This document shows, one piece after another, positions 1 through 53,700 of a stretch of DNA of 64,000 bases. A program made the position numbers and the translations under genes. The notes under the pieces were generated by a model that saw only the letters and a list, made by a program, of their open reading frames with translations, did not search any database and had not been told where the DNA came from. The DNA is from Bacteroidales bacterium UBA7009 (GTDB taxonomy: Bacteria > Bacteroidota > Bacteroidia > Bacteroidales > Paludibacteraceae): the NCBI GenBank assembly GCA_002449665.1, contig DJXH01000058.1:12165-76164 (forward strand), written 5' to 3'. Within the stretch, counting starts at the first letter, position 1; every line of letters starts with the position of its first letter.

Positions 1-57
1 TGATATTTGGCATTACAGAGCATTGAACAGCGATTACTTTATTTTCAAACACGAATA

Positions 58-65
58 TATTTTTG
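58..65 (+). promoter_or_regulatory. Bacteroidota -7 promoter box (TATTTTTG) upstream of the nuclease gene
   Basis: TATTTTTG at 58-65 matches the Bacteroides sigma-A -7 consensus TAnnTTTG, 21 nt upstream of the ATG at 87. It overlaps the TTG at 63 that the ORF track uses as a start, which argues against that start. Confidence 0.5.
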
Positions 66-86
66 TATTCAAGAAAGCATAGATTT

Positions 87-2224: not shown

Positions 2225-2238
2225 ACACTACATATACT

Positions 2239-2889: not shown

Positions 2890-2890
2890 A

Positions 2891-3805
2891 GTGGTAGATA
2901 AGTTTTTAGACTATATTGCTATTGAAAAAAGGCTGTCAGGGCGTACTGTTGAGACCTACAAAGACGACCTGTATGAGTTTTGCGCTTTCCTCGGCTGTGA
3001 CAGCTGCAGCATTGACGTGCAAAGCATAACGGAAGATGACGTAAAGGCCTGGATATTAGACCTTATGGAAAACAAGCACAACTCGCCTCGCAGCGTAAAA
3101 CAAAAACTTGCGGCACTGCACTCGTTCTACAAATTCCTACTGCTGACGGGTATTGTCAGCAAAGATGTAACACGCCGTATAATAGCACCTAAAGCGGACA
3201 AGCCCCTGCCCGTTTTCTTCAAGCCGCACGAGATGGAAGCCGCTACTGCTTACGAAGACAGCGCAGACGACAAAGAAAGCGCAAGGGATAATCTGATAAT
3301 CGAAATGTTATACCAGACAGGTATGCGACAGGCTGAGATGCTTGGGCTGAAAGATACCGACATAGACCTCATAAACAAGCAGATACGAGTATTCGGCAAA
3401 AGACGGAAAGAGCGCATAATACCCATAGGCGACCAACTGATAGAACAAATACAAAAATACAAAGAGTACAGAGATGGCGAATGTGGTACGTTTTTTGTAA
3501 TTTGGAAAAAGGACGGCGAGACAAAGCCGCTGAACAAAGCAACCTTATATAATATAGTAAGGAAACGTATGGGCGAGGTGAGTACGCTCAAAAAACATTC
3601 GCCTCACGTACTCAGGCACACTTTTGCCACCACTATGCTCAACAACGGAGCGGACATACGCACCATACAGACACTACTCGGGCACGCAAGTCTTGCTGCC
3701 ACGCAGATATACACCCACACTACTTTTGAACAAATAAAACAAACATATAAAGAGGCCCACCCGCGAGCGCAAAAAGCAGCGGCAAAGCCCATAATAACCA
3801 ACTAA
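2891..3805 (+). CDS. Tyrosine site-specific recombinase, XerC/XerD-like
   Basis: HVLRHTFATTMLNNGADIRTIQTLLGHASLAATQIYTH contains the R-H-R-Y catalytic signature including the terminal Tyr. There is an N-terminal SAM-like domain. GTG start one nt after the dNK stop. Confidence 0.85.
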   Translation: MVDKFLDYIAIEKRLSGRTVETYKDDLYEFCAFLGCDSCSIDVQSITEDDVKAWILDLMENKHNSPRSVKQKLAALHSFYKFLLLTGIVSKDVTRRIIAPKADKPLPVFFKPHEMEAATAYEDSADDKESARDNLIIEMLYQTGMRQAEMLGLKDTDIDLINKQIRVFGKRRKERIIPIGDQLIEQIQKYKEYRDGECGTFFVIWKKDGETKPLNKATLYNIVRKRMGEVSTLKKHSPHVLRHTFATTMLNNGADIRTIQTLLGHASLAATQIYTHTTFEQIKQTYKEAHPRAQKAAAKPIITN

Positions 3806-6937: not shown

Positions 6938-9900
6938 TTGAGACGTTTATCCTTCATTATATTAGTTTTGTCGGCGGCACTGACTGCAAAAGCGCAGACG
7001 GTAGCCGACTCCGTACAACAGGCGGACACGGTGGGCAGGATAGTGGCAAAAGGTCTTCCTGCAAGAGATGAGACAATGCAAACAGAGGTGGAGTATCAGC
7101 CTTCCACCGGTTGTTACGTACTGCGCACGAAGATAGGAGATGCCGAGGTGGCAACTCCCGTTCTTATGACTGCCGAAGAGTATAAAGACTACTCGGAAAG
7201 GAAATTCATACAGGAATACTGGCAGAAGAAAATAGCGGAGGTGGAGCATAACAACGAGAAGAAGTTTGACATCACCGATATGAAGTTCAATATCGGTCCG
7301 GCAGACAAGATTTTCGGTCCCGGCGGCGTACAACTCAAGTTGCAGGGAAGTGCGGAACTGATATTCGCTTTTAAGCACCAGTTTGTTGATAATCCGTCGC
7401 TTACACGCCGCTCTAAGAACAACAACGTCTTTGATTTTGACGAGAAGATACAAGCCAACGTGACCGGAAAAGTGGGAGACAAACTCAACTTCAATATGAG
7501 TTATAACACGGAGGCAAGTTTCAGTTTTGACCAGCAGAACGTCAAACTCGGCTACAAGGGGCAGGAGGACGACATCATTCAGTCGCTCGAAGCTGGTAAC
7601 GTATCGCTTGACCTCAACTCCCAACTCATACGCGGCAGCAAGGCACTGTTCGGCGTAAAGACCAACCTAAAGTTCGGCAAACTGCGCGTTCAGGCAGTTA
7701 TCAGTCAGCAGAACAGCGATGCTCAAAAGGTGAGCAGCGAAGGCGGCGCACAGATGACCAAGTTCGAACTGCGGGCAGATGCTTACGACGAGAACAAGCA
7801 TTTCTTCCTCGGACACTATTTCCGCGACCACTTTGAGCAAGCTATGAGTGCAATGCCATACGTGGCAAGCGGCATTAACATCACCCGCATAGAGGTATGG
7901 ATTACCAACCGCAAGGGCGTATATGACCAAGCGCGTAACATAGTGGCATTCACCGACCTTGGTGAGCAGCAGCAAGACCACCTGCTTGACCAGGGGTTGT
8001 ATCAAACGGCTTCGGACAATAATCTTCCGGGCAACAGAGCCAACCTGCTCTATGACCAACTGCTCGGTATGGGCGAGAACATACGCAGCATACATCAAGT
8101 AACGCAAACGCTGCAAGGCGTACCGCAGTGGATAAGCGGCGAGCAGTATGAGAAAATAGAGTCGGCACGCCTGCTGACAAGCAGCGAATATACACTCAAC
8201 GCCGCTCTCGGTTTTATCACACTTCGCGCTGCTCTCAACCAAGACGAGGTGCTTGCCGTGGCATACGAATACACATACGGCGGACAGGTGTATCAGGTGG
8301 GCGAGTTCTCAACGGACAAAGTGGGCAACCAGGATGAGCAAGGCAACGCCCCCACCCTGCTTCTCAAACTGCTTAAACCAGCCAACAACGCTCCTCACGC
8401 ACATAATCCCATGCGTCCGGGCGAACACTACGGCACGTGGGATTTGATGATGAAGAACGTCTATGCCCTCGGTGCGCAGTCAATGTCCAGCGACAAGTTT
8501 GAACTATACGTGATGTACCGCAACGACTCTGTCGGAACGAGCCTGCAATATCTGCCCGACGGGCCGGCGAAAGGCAAACAACTGCTGCGCGTGCTAAACT
8601 TGGACAAACTTGACTCACGTAACAACCAGTCGCCGGACGGACGATTTGACTACGTGGAAGGCTATACGGCTTTCAGTTCGACCGGCAGGATAATGTTCCC
8701 CGTGCTTGAACCGTTCGGCAGCCATCTTGCAGCCCAACTCGGCAACGACCCTGCACTTGTAAGCCAATACTGTTTCCAAGAACTGTACGACTCCACATTA
8801 GTGGTGGCACAGGAGACGAGCGAAAAAAATAAGTTTGTACTCAAAGGCAAATACAAAGGCTCCAACGGCAGCGAGATACGGCTTAACGCGATGAACATCC
8901 CAAGGGGAAGCGTAACGGTAACGGCAGGCGGTGCAACGTTAGTAGAAAACGTTGATTACGTAGTAGATTACACTATGGGTGTAGTAACAGTGCTCAATCA
9001 GTCCATATTAGATTCGGGAACAAAAGTGGATGTTAAACTGGAGAACCAAAGCACGTTCTCTATGCTGCGCAAGGGTCTGTACGGTGCGCACCTTGAGTAT
9101 GAGTTTAACAAGGACTTCACTATTGGCGGTACTATAATGTATATGCACGAACGTCCGCTTACCACCAAAGTGAATACCGGCAGCGAGCCGCTGTCAAACA
9201 CTATATGGGGACTTAACCTCAACTACAAGACCGAGTTCCAGTGGCTGAGTAACGCCATAGACCAAATTCCGTGGATAACGGCGACTGCACCGAGTACTTT
9301 TGAGATAGGTGCAGAGTTCGCCCACCTTATCCCCGGACATACCAACGATGTGGGCAAAGTGGGAACAGCCTACTTGGACGACTTTGAGTCCACCACTACT
9401 TCGATAGACATACACTATCCGAATAGTTGGTTCCTCGCCTCCACACCATCCGACCCTGCAAGGGCGCAGAACGGCAACTTCTACAACGATGCTCTGCTCA
9501 GCGACAACACCGCCTATAACTCCCACCGTGCCATGCTCTCATGGTACACGGTTGACCCCATCTTCGGCTACCCGCAGACCAACACGCCGATGCACATCAA
9601 GAACGACCCCGAAGCGATGTCCGACCACAGGACACGTATAGTATATGAGCAGGAACTCTACCCCAATAAAGACGTGCTTGCCAGCGAAGATACACGCATG
9701 TCCGTCCTCAACCTCTCTTACTACCCCAAGGAGCGCGGACAGTATAACATAGATGCCGAACGCGTAAACGAAAACGGCGAACTGCAAGAGCCGGAGAAGA
9801 ACTTCGGTGCGATAATGCGCAAATTAGACAACACCGACTTTGAGCGTGCCAACATAGAATATATTCAGTTCTGGCTGATGGACCCGCGCCTCACCAATGA

Positions 9901-12900
9901 AGAAAACTGGGAAGGCGGCGACCTGTATATCAACCTCGGCGATATAAGCGAAGACATACTGCGCGACGGCAAAAAAGCCTTTGAGCACGGACTTCCGTAT
10001 AACGTACAAGACCGCAATATGTTAGACTCCACCGTCTGGGGATATGTACCCAAGACGACCAGCACCACTATCGCTTTCTCCAACGAAGAGGGGGCAAGAG
10101 AAAGACAGGACGTAGGTCTTAACGGACTGAGTACGGAAGAGGAGTTTGCTTACGAGTACGGCGGCAAACGCCCATACGGAGAGTATGTGGCAGCACTGAG
10201 GCAGAAAATCAACTCCGAGACCCTCCAACGCTGGAACGCCGACCCCTTCTCGCCGCTTAATGACCCTGCCGGCGACAACTTCCACTACTATCGCGGCGAT
10301 GACTGGGACGAACAGGAGACCCCCATACTTCTTCGCTACAAGCACTACAACGGTACGGAGGGCAACTCGCCTGCAAGCAGCGGCAACGAATTGTACGGCA
10401 CAGCCTCTACGCTTACTCCGGATATAGAGGATATTAACCAAGACAACACGCTTAACGAGACGGAAAAATACTATGAGTATCACGTCAGTCTCGACCCGAG
10501 CCTGCTCGACGTTGGTCATCAGCATATTGCTGAGAAACTTGAGACGGAAGTTACCCTGCGCAATGGTCAGACCGTCAAGGTAACTTGGTATCAGTTTAAG
10601 ATACCGGTAAAAGGCAACGATGTAAGAAACGTGGGCGGCATACGCAACTACAAGTCCATACGTTTCATACGTATGTATCTCTCCGGCTGCAAACAGGATA
10701 CTCACCTGCGCTTTGCCACTATGCAACTCGTCAGAGGCGATTGGCGCAACTACACCAAAGGTCTGTATCACAACGTAGCCACCGACCAGTATAACACCAC
10801 CAACCCCGCATCTAACGCCCTGCTTGACGCACAGGCAGTTAACATAGAGGAGAACAACGCAAGAGAACCGGTCAACTATATTCTGCCTCCGGGCATATCC
10901 CGCCAGACCGACCCCGGGCAGGCACAACTCATAGCACAAAACGAGCAGGCACTCGTACTTAAAGTAAACAACCTTGACTACAACGATGCACTTGCCTTGT
11001 ATAAGAACGTTGTCTTTGATATGCGCAACTACAAACGCCTGCAGATGTTCGTCCACGCTGAGGCGGATGCCGCCGACCCCGACAACGAGAAGATACAGGA
11101 CGAAGACCTGAGTTGCTTCATACGCCTCGGTAGCGACCTGAAGAACAACTACTACGAATACGAGGTTCCGCTCTACCTCACGCAGCCCGGTATGTACAAC
11201 AACGACAACGAGTATGACCGACTGAAAGTATGGCCCGTAGCCAACAACATAGACGTACCTCTCACTGCCTTCACCAAAGCCAAGACGGAGCGCAACAAAG
11301 CCAAACGTAGCGGCGACAGGACTGTAGGCAACACCATACCATATATAGTATATGATGTGGACAACGGCAAGCCCGCCAACAAGATAACCATTGTCGGCAA
11401 TCCTACATTGGCAGAGATAGAGACGATAATGATAGGTGTGCGCAACCGCCGCAACACCAAGACCGGCGGTGTAAGCGGCGAGGTGTGGGTAAACGAACTC
11501 AGGCTGTCGGAGTTTAACGAAGAAGGCGGTGTGGCTGCTATGGCAAACGCCTCTCTCGGCATAAGCGACATAGCCAAAGTGAACGTAACGGGACACCTTG
11601 AAACGGCAGGCTACGGCAGCATAGAAAGCAACGTACAGAGCCGCAATATGGACAACATATACCAAGTGGCTGTCAGTGCGGCACTCGAAGGCGGCAGGCT
11701 CTTCCCCGAGCAAGCACAACTGCGCATACCTCTGTATGTAAGTTATACCAAAGACCAACAAAGTCCCAAATACGACCCTGTGGACTCGGATGTAGAACTG
11801 AAAGAGACCCTCGCCACATACAACAACAAGGAGCAGAAAGACTCTGTTCGCCGTGCCACCAATACAACACGCGATGCTATCAGTTTCAGTATTACGAATA
11901 TGAAGGTGGACATTCACTCGAAGAAACGTAATATGTTCTACGACCCTGCCAACTTCAGCATATCGGCTTCATACAGCAAGCAGATGAGCCGCTCGCCAGA
12001 GATGGAGAAAGACCAGACATCAAACCAAAAAGGCTCGTTCAACTACGCATATAGTTTCAACCCCAAGCCGTGGGAGCCGTTCAGCAAGATGGACAAACTC
12101 AAAGACGTGAAGATACTGAGCGAGTTCAACCTCTTCTACCTGCCGCAGTCGTGGGCGTTCTCAACGAACATGAACCGCAACTTCTCTATGCTCCGTATGC
12201 GCGACTACAACACGGCGGACGGCGTGGAAGCAACCATCTCGCAGACACCCACTTTCTCCAAAGACTTTACTTGGGACCGCAATTTCGACTTCAAGTATGA
12301 CCTAACGAAGAATATGAAGTTCACTTTCCGCACGGCAATGAACTCTACCGTGGACGAGGCATACTATACGCCCGAAATAATTCGGGATTATCAGTTCACC
12401 AACGACTACTACGAGGCTTGGCGCGACACAATTATGCGCAGTATGGGTACGTGGGGCTCTCCATATACCTATCAGCAAGTGTTCACCGCTACGTGGAACG
12501 TACCGTTCAACCGCATTCCGTATCTCGACTGCCTCACAGCCAACGCTTCGTATAACGGCACCTACACTTGGAACCGCACTGCCGCCACCACTACACAGCA
12601 AGACCTTGGTAACACCATAGGCAGCACGCGTGCCATACAGGCAGACGGACAGATAAACTTTGAGACCCTATACGGCAAGAGTAACTATTGGAAACAACTC
12701 AACCAACGTATGCAGGCGCGCCAACGCAACAACCGCAAGTTCAAGAGCAAAACGTTCAATCAGACCATCAGCCTCGAAGCCGGTGTACCAAAAGAGATTA
12801 ACCACCGTCTCAACTCCGAACACCTGCAAGTGGTGATAACCGACACTGCCGGACGCACTCTGCCCGTCAAGTATAAGACAGCAGGCAACGGAAAGATTAC

Positions 12901-14434
12901 GCTAACAAGCAAGAACGCCATTGACGGCGTACAGGTAAACATCACAACCCGCGACCCGAACGAGCGCACTGCAGGCGAACAGGCTATGGACTTTGCGGCA
13001 TACTTTGGTACGATGGTACGCCGCCTGCAGGTAACATATCGTTATACCAACTCGCTGACCGTCCCGGGCTTCCGCCCGCAAGTGGGCTTTATGGGACAAA
13101 AGCACGTGGATAACCTCTATGCCCCGGGCTGGGACTTCGCCTTCGGCTTCTTCGATGACAACTTCGTCGAGAAAGCCAAAGACAACGGCTGGCTCGCTTT
13201 GGGTCAGGATGTGGCACAGCCGGCAGGAGCCGCCAACACAAGCGACTTTGATGTCAAACTCACACTTGAACCATTCCCCGGATTTAAGATACAGGTGAAC
13301 GGCAAACGCTACGAAGCACATACAACCTCTCTGCTCTACGGCAGAACGACGGATGAAGATGAGCGATACGTACTGCAACGCAATGCCACCGGCTCGTTTA
13401 ACATCACGGAGGTTGCTATTGCCACAGCCTTTAAGAATATCGGCAAAGCATCGTCTAACTATGCGAGTGAGACTTTCGACCAGTTCCTTATCAACCGCGA
13501 CCTTATGCAGACACGCGTTCAGTCGCGCTACAACTCGCTCGTCTATCCGACAGAAAGCACCTTCATACCCGACTCGCTCGCCGGCAAATCATACAACCCC
13601 GCTCACGGCACTATCAGCCGCAACTCGGCAGACGTACTCATACCGACCTTTATCGCCACATACACGGGCAGGGATATATCAAGTATCAGTTTCAACCCCT
13701 TCCTGAGCATACTGCGCACGATGCCTAACTGGAGCGTAAGTTTTGACGGACTTGGCAAACTGCCGTGGATGCGCGACAACTTCCGCTCCGTAACGCTCAC
13801 TCACGCATACACTTGTAAGTATGCCATAGGTTCGTACAGCACGTTCTCCACTTGGGCCAACGCAGGCAACAAAGACCGCACACTCGGCTTCACACGCGAT
13901 GTAACAACACAACTGCCCGTACCTTCGGCTTCGTTTGATGTATCAACTGTAAGTATGCAAGAGTCGTTCTCCCCGCTGATTGGTATCAATATGACGATGA
14001 AGAACTCGCTCAGCCTCAAAGCCGAATATCGCCAGCAAAGAAACATTGCACTGAACATCACATCCGTACAACTGACCGAAGGACACAGCAAAGAGTTTGT
14101 TATCGGTGCGGGCTACACCATTAAGGACCTGCATTTCACAGCCAAGAAGAAAGACGGCGGTCAGCGCAAAGTGTCCAACGACCTCAAAATCAACGTGGAC
14201 GTAAGTTATAAGAACATCATGACACTGCTGCGCAAAGTGGAAGAGAACATAACACAGGCATCGTCCGGCAATAAAGTGCTTGGTATAAAGATTAGTGCCG
14301 ACTACGTTATCTCGCAGAAAGTCAGTCTGCAACTCTTCTACGACCACCAAGGCACCACGCCGCTTATGTCCAATAGTTATCCAGTCAACTCCGACAATGC
14401 CGGTATCAACATCAAACTGATGCTGACACGCTGA
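6938..14434 (+). CDS. sprA: Type IX secretion system translocon / gliding-motility protein SprA
   Basis: 2498 aa with a signal peptide (MRRLSFIILVLSAALTAKAQT). It has the giant beta-barrel-type composition and sits directly after ruvA, as in other Bacteroidota. TTG start is forced by the in-frame ruvA stop at 6914. Confidence 0.88.
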   Translation: MRRLSFIILVLSAALTAKAQTVADSVQQADTVGRIVAKGLPARDETMQTEVEYQPSTGCYVLRTKIGDAEVATPVLMTAEEYKDYSERKFIQEYWQKKIAEVEHNNEKKFDITDMKFNIGPADKIFGPGGVQLKLQGSAELIFAFKHQFVDNPSLTRRSKNNNVFDFDEKIQANVTGKVGDKLNFNMSYNTEASFSFDQQNVKLGYKGQEDDIIQSLEAGNVSLDLNSQLIRGSKALFGVKTNLKFGKLRVQAVISQQNSDAQKVSSEGGAQMTKFELRADAYDENKHFFLGHYFRDHFEQAMSAMPYVASGINITRIEVWITNRKGVYDQARNIVAFTDLGEQQQDHLLDQGLYQTASDNNLPGNRANLLYDQLLGMGENIRSIHQVTQTLQGVPQWISGEQYEKIESARLLTSSEYTLNAALGFITLRAALNQDEVLAVAYEYTYGGQVYQVGEFSTDKVGNQDEQGNAPTLLLKLLKPANNAPHAHNPMRPGEHYGTWDLMMKNVYALGAQSMSSDKFELYVMYRNDSVGTSLQYLPDGPAKGKQLLRVLNLDKLDSRNNQSPDGRFDYVEGYTAFSSTGRIMFPVLEPFGSHLAAQLGNDPALVSQYCFQELYDSTLVVAQETSEKNKFVLKGKYKGSNGSEIRLNAMNIPRGSVTVTAGGATLVENVDYVVDYTMGVVTVLNQSILDSGTKVDVKLENQSTFSMLRKGLYGAHLEYEFNKDFTIGGTIMYMHERPLTTKVNTGSEPLSNTIWGLNLNYKTEFQWLSNAIDQIPWITATAPSTFEIGAEFAHLIPGHTNDVGKVGTAYLDDFESTTTSIDIHYPNSWFLASTPSDPARAQNGNFYNDALLSDNTAYNSHRAMLSWYTVDPIFGYPQTNTPMHIKNDPEAMSDHRTRIVYEQELYPNKDVLASEDTRMSVLNLSYYPKERGQYNIDAERVNENGELQEPEKNFGAIMRKLDNTDFERANIEYIQFWLMDPRLTNEENWEGGDLYINLGDISEDILRDGKKAFEHGLPYNVQDRNMLDSTVWGYVPKTTSTTIAFSNEEGARERQDVGLNGLSTEEEFAYEYGGKRPYGEYVAALRQKINSETLQRWNADPFSPLNDPAGDNFHYYRGDDWDEQETPILLRYKHYNGTEGNSPASSGNELYGTASTLTPDIEDINQDNTLNETEKYYEYHVSLDPSLLDVGHQHIAEKLETEVTLRNGQTVKVTWYQFKIPVKGNDVRNVGGIRNYKSIRFIRMYLSGCKQDTHLRFATMQLVRGDWRNYTKGLYHNVATDQYNTTNPASNALLDAQAVNIEENNAREPVNYILPPGISRQTDPGQAQLIAQNEQALVLKVNNLDYNDALALYKNVVFDMRNYKRLQMFVHAEADAADPDNEKIQDEDLSCFIRLGSDLKNNYYEYEVPLYLTQPGMYNNDNEYDRLKVWPVANNIDVPLTAFTKAKTERNKAKRSGDRTVGNTIPYIVYDVDNGKPANKITIVGNPTLAEIETIMIGVRNRRNTKTGGVSGEVWVNELRLSEFNEEGGVAAMANASLGISDIAKVNVTGHLETAGYGSIESNVQSRNMDNIYQVAVSAALEGGRLFPEQAQLRIPLYVSYTKDQQSPKYDPVDSDVELKETLATYNNKEQKDSVRRATNTTRDAISFSITNMKVDIHSKKRNMFYDPANFSISASYSKQMSRSPEMEKDQTSNQKGSFNYAYSFNPKPWEPFSKMDKLKDVKILSEFNLFYLPQSWAFSTNMNRNFSMLRMRDYNTADGVEATISQTPTFSKDFTWDRNFDFKYDLTKNMKFTFRTAMNSTVDEAYYTPEIIRDYQFTNDYYEAWRDTIMRSMGTWGSPYTYQQVFTATWNVPFNRIPYLDCLTANASYNGTYTWNRTAATTTQQDLGNTIGSTRAIQADGQINFETLYGKSNYWKQLNQRMQARQRNNRKFKSKTFNQTISLEAGVPKEINHRLNSEHLQVVITDTAGRTLPVKYKTAGNGKITLTSKNAIDGVQVNITTRDPNERTAGEQAMDFAAYFGTMVRRLQVTYRYTNSLTVPGFRPQVGFMGQKHVDNLYAPGWDFAFGFFDDNFVEKAKDNGWLALGQDVAQPAGAANTSDFDVKLTLEPFPGFKIQVNGKRYEAHTTSLLYGRTTDEDERYVLQRNATGSFNITEVAIATAFKNIGKASSNYASETFDQFLINRDLMQTRVQSRYNSLVYPTESTFIPDSLAGKSYNPAHGTISRNSADVLIPTFIATYTGRDISSISFNPFLSILRTMPNWSVSFDGLGKLPWMRDNFRSVTLTHAYTCKYAIGSYSTFSTWANAGNKDRTLGFTRDVTTQLPVPSASFDVSTVSMQESFSPLIGINMTMKNSLSLKAEYRQQRNIALNITSVQLTEGHSKEFVIGAGYTIKDLHFTAKKKDGGQRKVSNDLKINVDVSYKNIMTLLRKVEENITQASSGNKVLGIKISADYVISQKVSLQLFYDHQGTTPLMSNSYPVNSDNAGINIKLMLTR

Positions 14435-22146: not shown

Positions 22147-22220
22147 GGTGCGGTAGTTCAGTTGGTTAGAATACCGGCCTGTCACGCCGTAGGTCGCGAG
22201 TTCGAGTCTCGTCCGCACCG
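22147..22220 (+). tRNA. tRNA-Asp (anticodon GUC)
   Basis: The cloverleaf folds by hand: acceptor GGTGCGG/CCGCACC, D arm GTTC/GAAT, anticodon loop CTGTCAC (GTC), T arm GCGAG-TTCGAGT-CTCGT. It is very close to E. coli tRNA-Asp. CCA is not encoded. Confidence 0.93.
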
Positions 22221-22229
22221 CAAAAAAAT

Positions 22230-22264
22230 AAGAGAGTTACGTTTTGTAACTCTCTTATTTTTTT
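22230..22264. terminator. Bidirectional intrinsic terminator between tRNA-Asp and the convergent GH13 gene
   Basis: 11-bp perfect stem AAGAGAGTTAC / GTAACTCTCTT with a 5-nt loop. It is flanked by an A-run upstream and a T-run downstream, so it can work on both strands. Confidence 0.8.
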
Positions 22265-22286: not shown

Positions 22287-24809
22287 CTACTTTACCACTC
22301 TGCCGAGGGCATCGTAGGTGACACCTTCACGGATGATATAAAGTTGTCCGTTATATATAACTTTTTGTGCTTTGACAGGATTAGCAATCGGCTCAACGAA
22401 GTCTAAGTCTGTTGTATAGTCGTAGGCAGACGGCACGGAAGGCAGTTTGACCGATGAGCCGGTAAAGATACGGAACTCGTTGGGTTGCAAAGTATAAGAC
22501 GATTGTGCTTTGATGCCGTCAGCATAGTAGTCGTACCACGTACCTTCGGGCAGGGTGATGTTGAGCGTTTTAGTAGCGGAGAAGTTGGCTACGGCATAGA
22601 CATCATTGCCCCACTGAACGAAGCGTTCTTGTGCTCCGGCATAGAGTTTGCTTGCGGTAGGATTGCCTTCAAACAATTTGGGTATCAAACGTGTGCGCAG
22701 TTGTATGGCTTGTGCGAGACGTTGATAAGCCAGCATACGAGATCCTTCACGGAACCAACCTGCTGCTTCGGGGCGGTATTTGGTGTTCATCTTAAACTCT
22801 GCCGTATCTTTTTTGCTGCCGTTTGTATAGATATATTCGGCTTTGACAGGCATTTTATACGGGTTCCTTCCCCAATCTGCCTTGCTGTTCTGCCATTTGG
22901 AGAAGTCGTATGCGAGTTCGTCAAACTGATAGAAGAGTTGCGGTCCGTCCATAAGACACTGCAAACCTATCACAGCCGGTACACGTCCTGCGCGGTCGGC
23001 TTCGCTTGAGGTAAGCGTACCTTCACCCCATTGTTTGGCTTTGAAGAAGGGGCGTTCTTCATCGTGGTTGTTGCAGTAAGAGACATAGTTATCAAGGTTG
23101 GCATCCGACAGTTTATCTCCTGTGAGCCAAGCACCTGCTGCCTGCTCGAAGGCGTCGGCGGTATTCTGCCAGCACATCATACCTGCCTCAACCAATTTCG
23201 GGCGGTCGGTTTTCATATTGCCACCCCAGTGTTCAAGCATAAGGTAAGAGCCCGGGGAAACGGACTGCATAACATCGTAATACTCGTTGATGTTTTTAAG
23301 CGCTGTATTGGTGGTGCCGCACAATCCGTGAGATAGGTCGAAGCGGTAGCCGTCCACCTTATACTCTGTGAGCCAATAGGCGACAGCGCGGCGGAACATA
23401 TCCTTAGCGGGTGCAAAGTCATGGTTCCAGTCCTGATATACATTATCGGAGTGCGGGACACGCGAATCAATATTAAACCAAGGGTTGAAGCGCAGGTCGG
23501 TAATAGTCTCGTTGCTTGAGGTCCACGGATAGAGTTTATTCATCGGGTTCTGCCCTGTGGCGTGGTTGAAGACCATATCAAGGACGACGGCGATGCCGCG
23601 TTTGTGGCACTCGTCAACGAGCAGTTTGAGGTCTTCGGGCGAACCGTAAGTTTTGTCCACGGCGAAATAGTGGTTAGGCGAATAGCCCCACGACTCATTG
23701 CCGTCAAACTCTGTAACGGGCATCAGTTCGAGACAGTTGATACCGAGGTTAGATATATAGTCCAACCTGTCTAACAAAGCGGGCAGGCTGTGGTAGGGGG
23801 TGAAATCATATACCCAAGTCTCGTATATGATGAGGTTGTTTTTGTCGGGGCGCACGAAGTTGACTGTAGCATCCGACCACTGGTAGGCGGGTTTGCCAGG
23901 CTGAATGACGGTTACATAGCCGTTGTCCGCGCCGGAAAGGGGATAGCCTATAAGGTCGGGGTGTAAAGTGCGTGGTTCATAGTGGTCATCGGGGTGAATG
24001 AGTTTTTCGGAGAAGAGGTCAGAAATCTGTTTTTTCACTCCGTCAGCGCGCATTACGGCATACTGGAAGCGATATTCTTTGCCGCTTTCAAGTCCGTTGA
24101 GGGTAATCCAGAAATAGTTGCCGTCGCGATAGAGTTGGTAGTCATTATTTAGTTTCCAGTCGGTCATATCGCCGATAAGAAAGACGTGTTGAGCAGGTTC
24201 AAGATTTGAGTTATTGTTTGCAGTTTTGTCGCCTGCGGCAAAGGTGCAGAGTGTAACGGATGTGCCGTCTTCGCCGTAGTATATACCGTTAACGACTCCG
24301 GCGGGGCGCGGTTTTTCTACAACAGAAGCGGGGGTAAAGTTTTTCCATATATCGTCATCGGGGGTCTCTTTACCTATATATACGAGTATATCTCCGCCTG
24401 AAGTCGTTTTGCCTTCGAGGGAGTTGTTGCCCTTGCCGTTGTGGAAGACCATAACGATAGCAGTAATTTCTTCTGTAGTCGGGCAGGAGAAATAGGTATA
24501 GAGGTTGTCAATGGTGAGTTGCCAGAGGTTGCCTGTTTTGGTCCATTGCGGTTCGGTGGTCGTTCCCCAAGCATCGTTCTTAATATGTTTCCAGTCGTGT
24601 ATGTCTTTGGATGAGGCGGTGATCAGTCCTATATGGGAGTAACATTCTGTGGCAGTTGCCATACCGCCATTGCCTTTGGTGGGGTCGAAGGTGAGGATGA
24701 TTTGACCGTCATAATTGACAGGTATAGGAGATGGAGATGATACTACCTGTGCTGTAAGAGAGACTAAAGTGAGTGTAACAGCAGCGATAAACGTAAAGAG
24801 ACGTTTCAT
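22287..24809 (-). CDS. Secreted GH13 alpha-glucan hydrolase with CBM48-like module (pullulanase/amylase type) and conserved C-terminal tail
   Basis: Signal peptide MKRLFTFIAAVTLTLVSLTAQ. GH13 regions VVLDMVFNHATG, VDGYRFDLSHG, MLEHWG and YCNNHDEER. An upstream E-set/CBM48-like segment (GKEYRFQYAV...). Tail KVIYNGQLYIIREGVTYDALGRVVK. Confidence 0.88.
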   Translation of the reverse strand: MKRLFTFIAAVTLTLVSLTAQVVSSPSPIPVNYDGQIILTFDPTKGNGGMATATECYSHIGLITASSKDIHDWKHIKNDAWGTTTEPQWTKTGNLWQLTIDNLYTYFSCPTTEEITAIVMVFHNGKGNNSLEGKTTSGGDILVYIGKETPDDDIWKNFTPASVVEKPRPAGVVNGIYYGEDGTSVTLCTFAAGDKTANNNSNLEPAQHVFLIGDMTDWKLNNDYQLYRDGNYFWITLNGLESGKEYRFQYAVMRADGVKKQISDLFSEKLIHPDDHYEPRTLHPDLIGYPLSGADNGYVTVIQPGKPAYQWSDATVNFVRPDKNNLIIYETWVYDFTPYHSLPALLDRLDYISNLGINCLELMPVTEFDGNESWGYSPNHYFAVDKTYGSPEDLKLLVDECHKRGIAVVLDMVFNHATGQNPMNKLYPWTSSNETITDLRFNPWFNIDSRVPHSDNVYQDWNHDFAPAKDMFRRAVAYWLTEYKVDGYRFDLSHGLCGTTNTALKNINEYYDVMQSVSPGSYLMLEHWGGNMKTDRPKLVEAGMMCWQNTADAFEQAAGAWLTGDKLSDANLDNYVSYCNNHDEERPFFKAKQWGEGTLTSSEADRAGRVPAVIGLQCLMDGPQLFYQFDELAYDFSKWQNSKADWGRNPYKMPVKAEYIYTNGSKKDTAEFKMNTKYRPEAAGWFREGSRMLAYQRLAQAIQLRTRLIPKLFEGNPTASKLYAGAQERFVQWGNDVYAVANFSATKTLNITLPEGTWYDYYADGIKAQSSYTLQPNEFRIFTGSSVKLPSVPSAYDYTTDLDFVEPIANPVKAQKVIYNGQLYIIREGVTYDALGRVVK

Positions 24810-24854
24810 AGTAATAGATATTTTGTGAGATTATTATAAGTTTTTTATGCGTGA

Positions 24855-24881
24855 ATAAGGGCGGTAGTCAGCCGCCCTTAT
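24855..24881 (-). terminator. GC-rich 10-bp hairpin without U-tract, 18 nt downstream of the 473-aa gene (putative terminator or RNA-stability element)
   Basis: ATAAGGGCGG-7 nt-CCGCCCTTAT. It is homologous to the hairpin at 26409-26435, sharing the core GGGCGGCTGA.TAC.CGCC on the minus strand. Confidence 0.5.
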
Positions 24882-24899
24882 CCTATGTTGTGCTAATGA

Positions 24900-26321
24900 T
24901 TAGCGAACAACTGCACCTTGTGCGTTGTAGAGTCTGCCATCACGGAGGATGTAGAGCTGACCGTCAATCATCATCTTGCCTTCGGCTTGTGCTTCACCGT
25001 TGATGGTGTCAATGCCGGTTGACTCACCACCTTCTTCTGCGATAGTAAGGATGGTAACTTGAATATTGCTATTATAGAAACCTACAAGACCTTTGATAGT
25101 ATATGTGGCAGTTTCGTCCAATTCCTCAATCAGACTGCTCTTGTCGTAGACATTGAACTCTACTTCATTGAACGTACCGATGTAGTTCTTTGCAGTTTCT
25201 GAGGCAACGAGGCTAACGCCATGATACATAAGGATGTAGTTAACATCAGTTGCAACGGGAACTGATACAGCATCATCGATAGCAGGAACATCACCTTTGG
25301 TAATTTTCAAGTCTGCGAAAGATGTGGAAGGAATGACCTCAGGAGTGGATTTATAGATATCTATTTTACCTGCCAAACCGGCTTCTACATGATCACCGGC
25401 TTCCAGACCGTAATTGCTCTTGAAGATCTGGGTCATACCGGTCTCGTCTTTAATATAGATGTTGCCACCGGAAACATAAACTACATCAAAAGCACCAAGG
25501 ACAACCTCTGTATCTTTATCGGCTGCATTGGCTTCAGCACAAGTGGTGTAAGTAACCTCTGTCTTGGTGATATAGATTTCGTTGTTTTCAAAAGCAACAA
25601 GTTTGATATAGAAGTTGTAGATACCATCTTCTTTTACGCTGAAAGTCATATCGTTGGCTTCAACGAGGTCTGCACCTTGCATAATTGTGCCTGTGAAAGC
25701 AACCTCACCGCAATAGCTGTACAGAGAGATAACGTCGGTGGTGGTGAGAGAGAGGTTCTCTACTTCCCATTGTTCGCCGCCGCCGATAGCCTCACCTTTG
25801 GTACCGCGAACAAACTGGTCGTTAACCATCAGACCATAGTTGTCGGTGCAAACGACCTCGCCGCCTTCGGAAGTAGTAACAGTCAATGTGTTTATTTGAA
25901 CGGTACTTTTAATGATGTTGAAAGTAACGAGATTTGCTTCTCCTGCCCAAGTTTTTTCTGCTCCATCATAACCATCGGCAGTAACATAAGTTGAAGTCAG
26001 ATTACTACCTGCAAACTCAATGCCTGTAATATTTGCACCATTTTTGGTAGAAACGGTAAGCCTAGCATCTTTATAACCACGAAGGTTAATTACTCCAGTG
26101 TTGGTGTTAGAAAAGAAACGGAAGCCATTACCTTGAGAAAAATTTACGGTAAGAACTACATTCCCAAAAGTAATTTGTTCTCCATCCTCAACTTGGGTGA
26201 ATTCACCTTTTGCAGGGTTGGTATAACCAAACCCTGAAGCATCAGAGAAATCAAAAGTCACCTGAGCCATAGCACCTACTGCCATTACGGCAGCAACAAA
26301 CAAAGAAAGAATTTTCTTCAT
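24900..26321 (-). CDS. Secreted non-catalytic protein of the starch operon (uncharacterised beta-rich modules plus conserved C-terminal tail)
   Basis: Signal peptide MKKILSLFVAAVMAVGAMAQ. No catalytic signature. One module (VCTDNYGLMVND...GIYNFYIKL) is shared with the 952-aa protein. Tail MMIDGQLYILRDGRLYNAQGAVVR. Confidence 0.7.
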   Translation of the reverse strand: MKKILSLFVAAVMAVGAMAQVTFDFSDASGFGYTNPAKGEFTQVEDGEQITFGNVVLTVNFSQGNGFRFFSNTNTGVINLRGYKDARLTVSTKNGANITGIEFAGSNLTSTYVTADGYDGAEKTWAGEANLVTFNIIKSTVQINTLTVTTSEGGEVVCTDNYGLMVNDQFVRGTKGEAIGGGEQWEVENLSLTTTDVISLYSYCGEVAFTGTIMQGADLVEANDMTFSVKEDGIYNFYIKLVAFENNEIYITKTEVTYTTCAEANAADKDTEVVLGAFDVVYVSGGNIYIKDETGMTQIFKSNYGLEAGDHVEAGLAGKIDIYKSTPEVIPSTSFADLKITKGDVPAIDDAVSVPVATDVNYILMYHGVSLVASETAKNYIGTFNEVEFNVYDKSSLIEELDETATYTIKGLVGFYNSNIQVTILTIAEEGGESTGIDTINGEAQAEGKMMIDGQLYILRDGRLYNAQGAVVR

Positions 26322-26408
26322 AATGTTTTAGTTTTTAATAATTAGTTAATTAGATAATTAAATATATTTCGGCCGGACAGTCTCGCTATCCACCCTTAAA
26401 ATTTGTAA

Positions 26409-26435
26409 GCAGAGGCGGGTATCAGCCGCCCCTGC
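26409..26435 (-). terminator. GC-rich hairpin (10 bp, 1 mismatch) without U-tract, 9 nt downstream of the 952-aa gene
   Basis: GCAGAGGCGG-7 nt-CCGCCCCTGC. The loop and stem core are shared with the 24855-24881 hairpin. Confidence 0.45.
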
Positions 26436-26444
26436 CTTATAAGT

Positions 26445-35100: not shown

Positions 35101-35526
35101 TAGTGTATAGTCGCCGTCTGCCAAGCCATCGGTGATATTCACGCTCAGTTCTTTTCCCCATTTTTGGTTACGTGAGCCGTTGTCGTCGCCGAGGTCAACT
35201 ATCCAGTCGCACTTTATCTCCTGTGCCTCACCCTCAGTCGTAGAGTTGATACGATAGAACATCGAAACAGCCGTAATGTCAATATTTTCGGATATTCTTT
35301 TCCAAACATTGGCTTCGGTCTTCGTAATGACGAAAGAAGATACCGTACCAAGTTCGATATCCGTCATACCGCTTGCGTTAAACACATAGTCAGATGCTGC
35401 ACCATCTAACGTATAAAAGAGAGTGGCGGCATTGTCCGACCAAAAGCCCGCTTTATCAGCCGCTGCAACAAAGAGCGATGCTGAACCTAAAAATGTGAGT
35501 AATAAAGATGTAAAGAATCTTTTCAT
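32059..35526 (-). CDS. Secreted multidomain GH13 alpha-amylase (two CHB_HEX_C-like units, two CBM25/26-like units, C-terminal tail)
   Basis: Signal peptide MKRFFTSLLLTFLGSASLFVAAA; the ATG at 35526 is preferred over the TTG at 35535. GH13 motifs MMQGFYWNSY, LIWLPPSA, VVADIVLDHLVG, FDGFRWDEAKGF, FMERW and FIDSHD. IYYTTDGT(A/E)PT occurs twice. VYFYAWLPG... and LYLYAF...KWPGMKW starch-binding-type units. Tail YKIIVGDQMVIIRDGVMYDVLGRRL. Confidence 0.88.
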   Translation of the reverse strand: MKRFFTSLLLTFLGSASLFVAAADKAGFWSDNAATLFYTLDGAASDYVFNASGMTDIELGTVSSFVITKTEANVWKRISENIDITAVSMFYRINSTTEGEAQEIKCDWIVDLGDDNGSRNQKWGKELSVNITDGLADGDYTLSIWYKFQSSDGDKYLSNGSKNYNFKFTINSSYVEKYYIAGNGIAGSDWCCGKEWDPAGCELTEGKATYTSLPAGQYSFKITNGTWNRYWGYTAVNASCSTSGYSTDSDGNVVFNLAQASDITIAFTEDKKICLTSSTPFTPVYSCVPSECPDVMMQGFYWNSYSPNNPDYATDVYGDTRWKSLLSQADEIGAYFDLIWLPPSALASGTGYYPRQYSNQNSDWGSRADLEKMIATFHNSGTKVVADIVLDHLVGMASWCDFATNNFGQYGTYTPQLSWICNGDEINDPAKKKEIGDCGKATGPDDEGDNNIGARDLAHSLTEVQDFSKAYLKWMINEMHFDGFRWDEAKGFDPAHIGDYNRAAKPYISFMERWSGNDDISWAIERTGRASMALDFQTKYSAFDGIAGFDYSKCKGSGLLGMGYAKYAVTFIDSHDWFLREEAHGQEFGGYGNSMKTELKDRLLQANAFLLSMPGVPSVFYPHWAKYKEYIKPMINARHLAGVHSESKVSGESAEKDGYECIVEGKNGKLKLQLGNKARTTDSDSNFKLIASGNGYSIWVSALGDAAPRIIATQSTYFEDNQAGIDVTIQAVGGSGSAVIYYTTDGTAPTTESAVYTAALNFKETTTLKVMAACGEAQSAVQTYTYTYREPLARGIQVRFRKPDVWNKVYFYAWLPGTDEQGNATSENIVGAYPGQRIYQDADGWFTYEFDSELKTLNFCINSGDDCGAVNVRSNDLEITYDACYGWKEGQETEDSAEELLDCSEELNPAFDLSISPESGSFSDVTEGVEVKITAIGKENAMIYYTTDGTEPTNSSASAQGSVSFKISASTTVKAYAFDPATNTQTEVQTTSYIYKAPQSGPITVNFIKPEEWTDLYLYAFTRVKQGSKFKDTPFALDGKNSKWPGMKWTNTTTINGLEWYTWTMGSDIKEIYIIFTEGDKKPQTQDIYVNENTCYVWNPDCGKAVISKDCDGRTDIETISIDNYDNKETYKIIVGDQMVIIRDGVMYDVLGRRL

Positions 35527-35561
35527 ATAAATCAATCAATCTATATTCAGAGTTGAACGCG

Positions 35562-35592
35562 CAAAGTTACAAAATCCATTCTGATTGGCAAA
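35562..35592 (-). promoter_or_regulatory. Putative promoter of the six-gene starch operon (-33 TTTG, 19-nt spacer, -7 TAACTTTG)
   Basis: On the minus strand TAACTTTG is at 35569-35562 and TTTG at 35592-35589. The ATG at 35526 lies ~35 nt downstream of the -7 box. Confidence 0.55.
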
Positions 35593-50771: not shown

Positions 50772-53700
50772 ATGAAAAATTTATTCTTAAAGTTAATCTT
50801 ACTCGTCTTAACAATCAGCTTTAACGTATTGGCAGTGGCACGTACCAATACTATTTATCAGGACATCAGTTATTGCAAGTTACGTTACGCCGATACATCC
50901 GGAAAAAACACACAGTTTAATATCACACTTTTTGATAACAACAATAACAGCAAACTGTTTGTTGTATGGGTAAGCATCGGTTCCCTATCAAGAGTTGAAG
51001 GTATGCACAAAGTACCGCTATACTCTACGACTTTGCAAGACTATACTTGCTATTTTTACGATACCGACAACTATAAGTGGTCGAATCCTTCCGGCTACGT
51101 AGAATTTCGTTTTACTGGAAGATATAGTGGTTCCGACCCTATCTATTATGTTCATTTTCAATTACGCGGCTACTATGGAAGCCGTTCCTCATACAATGGA
51201 ACGTGCGAATTTGCAAAAGAAATTCCCGTAAAAATGACAGATGTAAATAACAACCCGATAGAAATAAAAAACGATATAACTGTTGTTAACATTCCGGGCT
51301 GCGACAGTCACGTATCTGCTAAAGATGAAGGCTACTTTAATTATATCGGTCAAAGTGAACAGTATTTATTCCGTTTTGAAACTCTTTCGGTTAGTGATGA
51401 TGAGGGGCGTTTTTTAGGACTTGGCACAAATGTTGATGACGATTACACATATAATCAATTACTTCCTAACGGCTATAATAAACAGACAGGTGATGCGTCT
51501 TGTGACGTTACGCTATACAACGGGTATTATTTCTTTGAAGGATATTTCAATTACAATAATGCTTGTTTCTACGTAACTATGCAGTATCCTAACTATCAGG
51601 CAGATAACAATCCATATACTCAATCATTTGATTTTGAAAGTGCTACCATAACGAGACGTGCGGATTTTGAGACATCGGGAGTTGTCACTTTGACTGCCAC
51701 TAATGAAGACAACAAAAAAGTCGTGCTGGATTTTGTTGTTGATAAAGATGCTGTAGGGAATACCGGCGAGATCATAATACCGGCCGGAGACTATACCGTA
51801 AGTACTTCTGAAGAACAGGGGACTATAATTGCTTCCGGCGGCATAAATTATGATTTATCTATAAAAAATTCATACGCCGGAACAACTACAGCATTAAATG
51901 CAACCAATTACTCAACGAATCCTTTGTGGTGCCTACGAACAGGCGTTGTAACTGTTGAAGAAGGGATGTCAACCATAACGGTTACGGCCAATCAGAATTA
52001 CCGTAACGCTCCGGTTAATATCACAATTAAGAAGGCTGCCGCATCCACCCATACACTCACTTTCTACGGAGAGGGACTGACCGGCAACGTACAGCAGACT
52101 GAACTCAACGAAGGCGATGCCGTCACAGCACCTGTTCTGCCCGAACGTGCAGACAACAACGGAACATACACCTTCTCAGGATGGTACTGCGACAATGAGC
52201 AAACAGTAGTAACTGACTTCGACGGTGTAACAATGCCGGCTCAAAACCTCACATACAGAGCAACTTGGACTCTCACATCATACGACAACAAATGTATCGA
52301 CAGCGAAGGTAACGACTACGATGCAACAGCTATAATGATGTACGAGGAAAGATGGCAACTCGACGGCACAGACATCTTCTTTGACGACCACAACTCCACA
52401 TACGAAGACTACGACTACGCGGGAGAGTATATAGAAAATGCCAACCCCACACTCCCGTTGGCTGACAACTTCACCGACACTTACGTCTTCACTGACCCGC
52501 TGCGCTCAACTGACGCTAACGGTACGCAGTTTGACAGTATAGTCTATAAATTGGAAATGACTTACAGCAGGTTCTTCAACAACCACAAACCTGACAACTT
52601 CTCACCGGAAACAAGCAGACTTGACGAGCGCATAGACCTCGGTATCATCTACCTCGATGACGACACAGACTCATACACCAACGACGGACAGACATACACC
52701 CTTGCCAACCTCGAAGGCAAAAACGACTCCACATTCAGCCTCAAAATAGCAAGCGGCACATACCTGCACGGATGCGACAGCGTAGTCAAGTTCACAATCA
52801 CGCAATCACCGTTGCTCACGTGGGAAACAGACGGAGGAAACCTCACTGACGGAGATTACACCGATGGCAGAACAAAACCCGAAACACCGATAGTAGCACC
52901 AGCAGACCCCACCAAGGACGGATATACATTCAACGGATGGAACACCGCTGAAGACGGAACGGGAAGCAACTACTCCGCCGATGCAACCATGCCCGCAACT
53001 GACCTCACATACTATGCGCAATGGACAGTCGGCACACGCACCATCACTTGGGTCACTGACGGCGATGCACTCACAGGCAGTTATACAAACGGAGAGGTGA
53101 TGATAGGCTCCACCATCACGGAGCCGGACACTCCCACACGCACCGGCTATACATTCGCGGGCTGGTATCCTGCACCTGCGGAGACAATGCCGGATAATGA
53201 TCTTATCTATACAGCCACTTGGACTGCTCCCGCTACGCAAACACATATCTGTATCGACCCCGAAGGATATACCAACGAAGGAGGTGCAGATTGGTATATA
53301 GACGGGTGGGATGAGCATAACGATAAATATGAAAGCTACGAATACGTTACACGCGACACCATATATCGCGACACCCTCCGCTCTGCCGACAACAGTTTCG
53401 ACAGCATCTACTACTCGCTCGAACTGACATACAGCACGATGTATAAACAGTATAACCGTTTGGGAACACCCGCTAACGGCAGTACAACAACGAAAGTGGA
53501 TTTCCGCGTTGACCTCGGAACAATCTACCTTAATGATGAGAGCGATAGTTACACCAACGACGGACAGACCTTCACTCTCGCTAACCTCGAAGGCAAAAAC
53601 GACTCGACCTTCAGCCTCAAAATAGCAAGCGGTACTGCACTGCACGGCTGCGACAGTGTCGTTAAGTTCACTCTCACACAATCACCACTGCTCACGTGGA

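Follow-up and report, generated by a model that had tools for sequence, protein, structure and literature searches.

A putative extracellular starch operon of uncultured Paludibacteraceae whose six proteins all end in short C-terminal tags

Starch use in the Bacteroidota is taught through the Sus paradigm, in which lipoproteins act together with SusC/SusD. We analysed a 64,000-nucleotide (nt) stretch of the genome of Bacteroidales bacterium UBA7009 (GenBank assembly GCA_002449665.1, contig DJXH01000058.1, positions 12,165 to 76,164 of the forward strand; hereafter the window), which contains an operon of six genes for three GH13 enzymes and three non-catalytic proteins, all six ending in a short C-terminal tag. 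Among described systems, the closest is the GH5 cluster of ‘Candidatus Paraporphyromonas polyenzymogenes’, a rumen Bacteroidales bacterium with a cellulase cluster that is not a polysaccharide utilization locus (PUL) and is linked to the T9SS, the type IX secretion system (Naas et al. 2018, PMC5831590). Amylases are secreted via the T9SS in Flavobacterium johnsoniae (PMC11885536). With moderate confidence we read the operon as an extracellular amylolytic system of uncultured rumen Paludibacteraceae whose proteins carry miniature T9SS-type sorting signals, a reading in which we infer the extracellular location, the T9SS dependence of the tags and the binding of starch by two of the non-catalytic proteins (311 and 473 amino acids, aa).

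The operon spans window positions 22287–35535 and consists of six co-directional minus-strand open reading frames (ORFs) encoding 840, 473, 952, 311, 613 and 1158 aa. Public gene calls, taken from an identical 110-kb rumen metagenome contig, use later starts for the last two, giving 594 aa (start at 32096) and 1155 aa (ATG at 35526). By Pfam, the 840-, 613- and 1158-aa proteins have a GH13 catalytic domain (PF00128; 78.9, 35 and 26.1 bits for the three, cut-off 22) and the other three have none, which agrees with a sequence-only reading of this DNA that had proposed three GH13 enzymes and three non-catalytic proteins in one operon, and its coordinates were exact. GH13 regions I–IV are readable in all three enzymes, with motifs such as GYRFD, EHW and NHDE or their equivalents.

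Judged by its matches to PDB sequences, the 840-aa enzyme (22287–24809, minus strand) is a GH13_47 homologue of the Bacteroides ovatus surface amylase BoSusG. Its closest solved alpha-amylases are 8xx9 (E=1e-82) and 8dge/8dl1/8dl2 (E=6e-69), and 8DL2 is BoSusG (BoGH13ASus), an outer-membrane amylase that belongs to GH13_47 and to the B. ovatus Sus (PMC11633381; PMC11239784). The protein has a type I signal peptide, an N-terminal CBM48-like region (CBM48, E=9e-4) and a tail of the kind called type 1 below. The 1155-aa alpha-amylase (1158 aa from a TTG; 32059–35526, minus strand), assigned by Pfam, NCBIfam, a PDB match and BLAST, runs from a signal peptide through an unknown N-terminal domain, an X25-like module and GH13 plus Alpha-amyl_C2 to two CHB_HEX_C/Fn3_assoc and CBM26 pairs and a type-1 tail. 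Its GH13 domain is of the plant/archaeal type, corresponds to NCBIfam PRK09441-type alpha-amylases and has barley AMY (1amy) as its best solved relative. The 613-aa alpha-amylase (594 aa in the public calls; 30312–32153, minus strand; Pfam, NCBIfam and BLAST) likewise resembles plant-type amylases such as barley AMY, shares 42% identity with the 1155-aa enzyme in the catalytic region (BLAST) and is ordered as a signal peptide, a module with a KWNQT motif, a G/N-rich linker, the GH13 catalytic domain and a type-2 tail.

Among the non-catalytic proteins, the 952-aa multi-module protein (26445–29303, minus strand) matched Pfam CBM26 (E=9e-17) and, weakly, X25. CBM26 (PF16738) scored 61.4 bits in this protein and 43.3 bits in the 1158-aa enzyme (cut-off 28.1), with two stretches in each. 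The 952-aa protein is composed of two KWNQT-type modules, three X25/SusE-F-like modules, two CBM26 modules, one module that we call ‘YGL’ and a type-1 tail, and a weak SusF_SusE match (E=4e-4) covers residues 150–265; we read it as a SusE/F-like multi-CBM protein. Its gene contains a 300-nt direct repeat of 94% nucleotide identity (27230–27529 and 27872–28171) in which an X25-like module is duplicated. The repeat looks like a recent duplication, and it could alternatively be an assembly hazard.

The other two non-catalytic proteins gave zero matches to Pfam or NCBIfam families. The 311-aa protein (29363–30298, minus strand; AlphaFold2 (AF2) model with a predicted local distance difference test score (pLDDT) of 84) comprises a signal peptide, a KWNQT beta-sandwich, a disordered GGN linker, a second beta-sandwich and a type-2 tail, and the best Foldseek matches of its model, albeit weak, are alpha-glucan-binding CBM41 modules. 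Its family has 139 homologues, all named ones being ‘hypothetical protein [Paludibacteraceae bacterium]’, and in one orthologue (P0148) the KWNQT module is replaced by a genuine CBM26. The 473-aa protein (24900–26321, minus strand; AF2 pLDDT 82.7), for which only 45 homologues were found, comprises a signal peptide, an N-terminal beta-sandwich, a ‘YGL’ module in common with the 952-aa protein, a tandem OB-fold, a disordered linker and a type-1 tail. Foldseek returned HIN/OB folds and a weak SusE match for its model; as a functional lead the HIN/OB match gave nothing beyond ‘tandem OB fold’.

BLAST comparison revealed that an N-terminal KWNQT module is common to the 311-, 613- and 952-aa proteins. 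CBM25/26-like units had been proposed for all the non-catalytic proteins, and this held for the 952-aa protein, where CBM26 was found, but not for the KWNQT modules, the 311-aa protein or the whole 473-aa protein, none of which had a CBM25/26 match in Pfam. The KWNQT module co-occurs with CBM26 and X25 in other bacteria and may represent an unclassified family of starch-binding modules. Among examples outside the operon (P0106, P0149, P0180, P0184 and P0185; P0105, P0156, P0158, P0160 and P0177), it sits at the C-terminus of Bacteroidales proteins with lipoprotein-like signal peptides, and it is also present in proteins that by eye resemble Gram-positive ones in their signal peptides and hydrophobic C-terminal ends, the majority of them with CBM26 and X25. 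The 311- and 473-aa proteins are probably glucan or granule binders. For the operon as a whole, the domain content, the homology to BoSusG, the SusE/F-type modules and the conserved synteny described below make an alpha-glucan target very likely.

Each of the six proteins is tagged at its C-terminus, as the sequence-only reading had noticed, but the one shared tail that it described proved to be two distinct tails, type 1 occurring four times and type 2 twice. Type 1, on the 840-, 473-, 952- and 1158-aa proteins, ends in K-x-I-x-NGQLYI(I/V)RDGxxYNAxGxxV(K/R), and type 2, on the 311- and 613-aa proteins, in P(I/M)YNxxGxxVxxxYxGxVIQxGRKYI. On the minus strand, the type-1 tags are encoded at 22290–22424 (the last 45 aa of the 840-aa protein), 24903–25037 (473-aa protein), 26448–26582 (952-aa protein; P0007, 68.9 bits in the profile search described below) and, in divergent form, 32062–32196 (1155-aa amylase), and the type-2 tags at 29366–29500 (311-aa protein) and 30315–30449 (613/594-aa amylase). 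The tag core comprises about 25 residues, and conservation extends over about 40 when the linker (8–10 residues) and a T-[AG]-[IV]-[ED]-x-[VI] motif upstream of it are included; in type-1 tags of other genomes this motif reads T-[AG]-[IV]-[ED]-N-[VT]. In the AF2 models, the tail of the 473-aa protein is predicted as three short strands (residues 448–466) after a linker with pLDDT below 50, and that of the 311-aa protein as two clear terminal strands after a disordered linker. Aligning the two types with hhalign paired only the YNxxGxxV strand (13 columns, probability 42%). A regular-expression scan of the window found exactly seven tagged ORFs, namely the six operon genes and the gene for a 1723-aa Listeria-Bacteroides-repeat surface protein (50772–55943, plus strand; type-1 tag at 55806–55940), which shows that tagging extends beyond starch proteins. 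This surface protein has seven Listeria-Bacteroides (Flg_new) repeats, and its gene adjoins a low-GC stretch (0.40–0.44, at about 49–52 kb).

The type-1 motif was back-translated and scanned against one genome per GTDB species, and at least 120 stretches matched; among the 131 motif matches listed, 128 lay within 8 residues of a stop codon. When a 45-position profile of the type-1 tag was searched against 1.84 billion representative proteins, 13,227 protein clusters were retrieved with a threshold of E≤1e-3 and 1,106 with E≤1e-10. The 150 matches listed were without exception at the extreme C-terminus, and the distance of the conserved Gly from the end was 4 residues in 133 of 149 and 3 residues in 15. 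MKK-type signal peptides were present on 85 of 92 complete tagged ORFs, none of which had a convincing lipobox. The tags are a real C-terminal signal and, rather than a product of chance, a common feature that most likely serves export or surface sorting. They sit on bodies as different as pectinesterases, beta-helix lyases, BspA-type leucine-rich-repeat proteins, Big_2/fn3 proteins, phosphoesterases, endonuclease I, a C10 peptidase and X25/CBM26 proteins. Orthologues in the 473- and 311-aa families carry either tag type, so the tags are interchangeable. For the 840-aa protein, the 119 closest clusters of homologues read (identity of 52% or more) included 115 with type-1-like tails, and the T9SS model PF18962 matched none of the homologues listed. 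Almost all hosts among the motif matches listed are metagenome-assembled genomes (MAGs) labelled Paludibacteraceae, ‘uncultured Bacteroidales’ (rumen) or Muribaculaceae/Sodaliphilus, with a few Prevotella. Tags were also seen on five contigs (L019, L025, L035, L092 and L108) in MAGs labelled Mycobacteriaceae, Firmicutes CAG:95, Clostridiales or Acidaminococcaceae, bins that are probably mislabelled or contaminated.

The PNPase region of the window is 78% nucleotide-identical to a MAG labelled Paludibacteraceae, and all named members of the large family of 840-aa homologues are again ‘hypothetical protein [Paludibacteraceae bacterium]’; both point to Paludibacteraceae and away from Prevotellaceae, the lineage first suggested. 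At least five further genomes or contigs (L126/L127, L120, L130, L131 and L132) have the same operon type, and L062 has a partial version. These related clusters contain one or two plant-type GH13 enzymes, a roughly 300-aa protein, a multi-CBM protein, a GH13_47 enzyme and sometimes a homologue of the 473-aa protein. All members readable to the C-terminus are tagged, none of the tagged proteins has a lipobox, and the flanking genes differ from genome to genome. In L130 a type-1-tagged streptopain-like C10 peptidase (Inhibitor_I69, Peptidase_C10 and Big_2; 7970–9976) lies inside the cluster, between the multi-CBM protein and the GH13_47 amylase. In L126 a gene for a 534-aa AAA-ATPase_like/PDDEXK_9 protein without signal peptide or tag (8322–9926) sits mid-cluster and looks like a selfish insertion.

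Inspection of the six N-termini by eye found type I signal peptides and no lipobox Cys, as had been claimed from the sequence. Pfam scans of the large ORFs in the 64 kb window detected no SusC/D, SusR, hybrid two-component system (HTCS) regulator or sugar transporter, and the neighbours of the operon in the window are housekeeping genes. Nor was SusC/D found within about 10 kb of the cluster in L126, L130, L131 and L132, or in the flanks fetched for L120, so that the earlier claim of an operon lacking SusC/SusD, SusR, HTCS and transporter is supported in the window, and its SusC/D part at these related loci as well. What the data show is a lack of linkage to Sus genes, and the term ‘Sus-independent’ goes beyond this. 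Of the elements of a Sus-type PUL, the locus has a SusG-type GH13 (840-aa enzyme) and a SusE/F-type binder (952-aa protein, with CBM26 twice), and it lacks an adjacent SusC/SusD pair and lipoprotein versions of the amylase and the glycan-binding proteins. It is quite conceivable, if somewhat short of probable, that these six proteins are the surface or secreted arm of a split Sus-like system with SusC/D, SusR and the periplasmic enzymes encoded elsewhere in the genome. The homology of the 840-aa enzyme to BoSusG and the SusE/F-like modules of the 952-aa protein speak for this, SusR-family regulators and SusC proteins do occur near tagged genes in related genomes, and the stretch examined covers 64 kb of the genome. 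Set against this are the absence of SusC/D from those 64 kb and from about 10 kb around the cluster in the five related loci, and the lack of lipoproteins, lipidation being what defines the attachment of SusD/E/F/G. A split system would moreover agree with an extracellular, T9SS-sorted operon as far as export is concerned and differ from it only on uptake.

The T9SS outer-membrane translocon SprA/Sov is encoded in the window, outside the operon (6938–14434, plus strand; PF14349 SprA_N, E=7e-196). A T9SS has been reported in the Muribaculaceae (PMC4936053), and the last 22 residues of the C-terminal domain (CTD) of HBP35 suffice for T9SS secretion of GFP (PMC10202324). We favour miniature T9SS signals because of SprA in the window, the CTD-like cargo, the T9SS reported for a tag-bearing family and this 22-residue precedent. 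On that reading, Sec would carry all six proteins across the inner membrane by way of their type I signal peptides, and the C-terminal tag of each, whether type 1 or type 2, would stand in for Sus-style lipidation. The tags would direct outer-membrane export or surface sorting, most probably by the T9SS, whose SprA is encoded 8 kb away. Starch would then be bound and hydrolysed outside the cell by the operon proteins, and oligosaccharides would be taken up by transporters encoded elsewhere.

Type A CTDs confer T9SS-dependent secretion; PorU then cleaves off the CTD, and the protein is either anchored to A-LPS or set free. Like them, the tags are located at the extreme C-terminus of Sec-dependent, non-lipidated proteins, with a T9SS gene (SprA) in the window, and we speculate, from reading by eye, that type 2 could be a type A CTD in shortened form, and type 1 a form of type 2 with its strands swapped. 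A series of results weighs against miniature T9SS signals. The last 100 aa of the seven tagged window proteins matched none of TIGR04183, TIGR04131 and PF18962 at E≤10, and neither did 24 type-2 tails; among 77 tagged proteins, PF18962 was outside the 25 most frequent of 33 families. The tags are too short and are predicted to form two or three strands, as opposed to the seven-strand Ig-like sandwich of the canonical CTD, which was reported to be essential (PMC11285876). In L006, an 8-kb stretch of a rumen Bacteroidales MAG, the coexistence of a canonical CTD and a tag indicates that the tag is no simple substitute for type A signals, and the tags could feed a pathway or receptor other than that of type A signals. 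Of the parts of the reading other than export, starch binding by the 473-aa protein is putative, being suggested by genomic context, and a Sus-like transporter elsewhere in the genome, of which 64 kb were examined, may be functionally coupled to the operon.

The full-length tagged window proteins had no T9SS CTD match at E≤0.1, and as a positive control a canonical CTD from L006 (2137–2466) scored E=5e-8 with TIGR04183 in the same procedure. In L006 this CTD (minus strand) lies beside a type-1-tagged protein (43–89, plus strand) and opens with ‘TGIDTI’, the same motif as the start of the tag of the 473-aa protein. Searching the tag profile against PDB sequences returned chance-level matches only, and the L006 canonical CTD also missed the solved CTDs in this search. 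As for type B CTDs, NCBIfam TIGR04131 did not match, no PorP/SprF-like gene was found in or beside the operon, and PorP/SprF was absent from the families common to at least two of 129 secreted ORFs neighbouring tagged genes. The sequence-only suggestion that tail and sprA point to the T9SS or another common route keeps its basis in the common tag and the presence of SprA and gains none from CTD models; since the tags match no such model, T9SS export remains something that we infer. Given the lack of type A and type B features other than position and context, together with the coexistence in L006, a distinct receptor, shuttle or docking role is also conceivable.

In a docking role the tags would be docking or anchoring peptides that attach to a receptor, scaffold or glycan at the surface without a covalent bond, for instance by adding a beta-strand, which we regard as unlikely. 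Equally unlikely, in our estimate, is its corollary of an amylosome-like enzyme assembly on a Gram-negative surface, reached through the outer membrane by some other means. The predicted shape of the tags, short beta-hairpin-like units on flexible linkers, would suit docking, as would the dockerin-like tagging of many different enzymes within one genome and the coexistence with canonical CTDs; two tag types could mean two receptor specificities, and T9SS C-terminal signals are known to encode shuttle or receptor specificity (PMC12618676). On the other hand, neither the operon nor its relatives and the flanks showed a repeated, cohesin-like receptor protein, and Pfam detected neither cohesin nor dockerin in the six proteins. 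The strict distance from motif to C-terminus fits a sorting signal better than a binding module, and non-lipidated proteins would still need an export route across the outer membrane. The T9SS is the only general route of this kind known in the Bacteroidales. A broader proposal, that the tags belong to an unrecognised sorting system of gut Bacteroidales, being either a third, miniature class of T9SS signal or a device for tag–receptor docking at the surface, is put forward only tentatively and is rather doubtful as a whole. There is nevertheless a real chance that the tags are something more distinct.

Very improbable, by comparison, are periplasmic or quality-control signals (for example for protease recognition or packaging into outer-membrane vesicles), with the periplasm or vesicles as the place where the proteins act. 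A type I signal peptide by itself does predict the periplasm, and no known export-signal model matches; architectures with multiple CBM26/X25 and granule-binding modules, however, make sense only outside the cell, and the BspA-like adhesins, pectinases and nucleases that also bear tags are typically extracellular. Inspection found no terminal aromatic beta-signal or hydrophobic helix in the tags. Exosortase, rhombosortase and sortase-type tags and an outer-membrane-protein beta-signal were discarded on the same inspection, with LPXTG likewise missing.

Transcription of the operon appears to be delimited as the sequence-only reading proposed, by one promoter and a bidirectional terminator shared with tRNA-Asp, both of which were recovered by pattern match and hairpin analysis. 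The Bacteroidetes-type promoter (35562–35592, minus strand) has a −33 TTTG, an N19 spacer and a −7 TAACTTTG, and lies 35 nt 5′ of the ATG at 35526. The Bacteroidetes consensus consists of −33/−7 elements, which TTTG-N19-TAACTTTG fits; this pattern has one match inside the operon region and 10 in the 64 kb window, against 1.28 expected. The intrinsic terminator (22222–22264, both strands), a perfect 20-bp stem flanked by an A-run and a T-run, sits between tRNA-Asp (22147–22221, opposite strand) and the stop codon of the 840-aa gene. From promoter to terminator the genes are separated by an overlap, 13, 59, 123 and 90 nt. The overlap is between the start of the 613-aa ORF and the 3′ end of the amylase gene upstream, which encodes the tail (32059–32153), and amounts to 95 nt with the first ATG or 38 nt with the public-call start, either of which may be the true start of the 613/594-aa protein. 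A GC-rich hairpin without a T-run (24855–24881, minus strand) lies between the 473- and 840-aa genes, and a similar one, read by eye, directly after the stop codon of the 952-aa gene (26409–26436, minus strand). The two share the core GGGCGGCTGAYACCCGCC and are each directly 3′ of a stop codon (of the 473- and 952-aa genes), and they may be attenuators, processing sites or mRNA stabilisers.

The position next to a tRNA gene had been taken as compatible with an acquired island, an idea that we discarded: the only integrase-like gene (XerC/D type, 2891–3805) is about 18 kb away, there are no flanking direct repeats, the GC dip is slight, and relatives hold the cluster in different housekeeping contexts. 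The start of the window (1–3805) is a low-GC region (0.37–0.39) with an ORF lacking a Pfam match (63–1220) and a D12-class adenine methyltransferase (1217–2224), which may form a restriction-modification module. The methyltransferase is followed by a deoxynucleoside kinase and the XerC/D-type recombinase, and the same pair occurs directly downstream of the L132 starch cluster.

In the literature that could be searched, neither a starch operon so composed nor the tags were found described, and no Pfam or NCBIfam model recognises the tags. Many uncultured Paludibacteraceae from ruminant and hindgut microbiomes share this conserved operon type. It would represent the surface arm of a Sus-like system (GH13_47 and SusE/F-like binders) rebuilt without lipid anchors, unlinked to SusC/D and with additional endo-amylases and novel binding modules. 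As putative new families of starch-binding CBMs we put forward the KWNQT and ‘YGL’ modules and the families of the 311- and 473-aa proteins. Studies of rumen Bacteroidales call T9SS cargo by TIGR04183 only (PMC5831590, PMC11107044), and would thereby miss tagged proteins. If the tags are export signals, inventories of T9SS cargo or ‘secreted CAZymes’ (PMC5831590, PMC11107044, PMC4936053) would be large underestimates because they rest on TIGR04183; the need for a folded seven-strand CTD would be challenged, and a natural minimal signal would become available. Should either sorting or docking hold, most secreted proteins of rumen Paludibacteraceae, in thousands of protein families, would escape TIGR04183 surveys.

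Comparing the tags with T9SS type A CTDs revealed several likenesses. Both occur at the C-terminus of Sec-exported, non-lipidated and often very large proteins, after a linker, and on similar classes of cargo; by eye, the tags also have a YDxxGxxV-like strand as in canonical CTDs, and type 2 their GxhIxNGxK ending. Type A CTDs, however, have 70–100 residues and seven strands, whereas the tags have about 25 residues in the core and about 40 overall, with two or three strands and no match to a hidden Markov model (HMM), and the order of the two conserved strands in type 1 is swapped relative to type 2.

The resemblance to multi-CBM and scaffold systems of Gram-positive bacteria, raised by the sequence-only reading, holds functionally but not for their parts. 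The Ruminococcus bromii amylosome and the Eubacterium rectale amylases (PMC4611034) likewise combine several GH13 enzymes with non-catalytic CBM26 binders and a common short C-terminal module on each protein, and by analogy the operon proteins may act jointly on particulate starch. These organisms are Gram-positive, and their shared modules are cohesin-binding dockerins or sortase signals, neither of which is present in the operon (no dockerin or cohesin in Pfam). F. johnsoniae also breaks down starch with non-lipoprotein amylases, whose T9SS dependence, unlike that proposed for the operon, is experimental; the paper on them describes no comparable multi-gene operon with non-catalytic partners (PMC11885536).

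Like the operon, the ‘Ca. Paraporphyromonas polyenzymogenes’ cluster comes from uncultured rumen Bacteroidales and combines multi-modular glycoside hydrolases, novel binding modules and C-terminal signals without a SusC/D pair. It differs in targeting cellulose (GH5) with canonical TIGR04183 CTDs, whereas the operon targets starch (GH13, CBM26 and X25), is half non-catalytic and has shorter tags that escape TIGR04183. Unlike the Sus of Bacteroides (B. thetaiotaomicron susRABCDEFG; B. ovatus), the locus lacks SusC/D, SusR, periplasmic SusA/B and lipoprotein signal peptides, and its proteins are all C-terminally tagged, with plant/archaeal-type GH13 amylases added. It shares with the Sus a GH13_47 enzyme with an N-terminal CBM region and SusE/F/X25-like and CBM26 modules, and capture and cleavage of starch at the cell surface would be the overall function of both.

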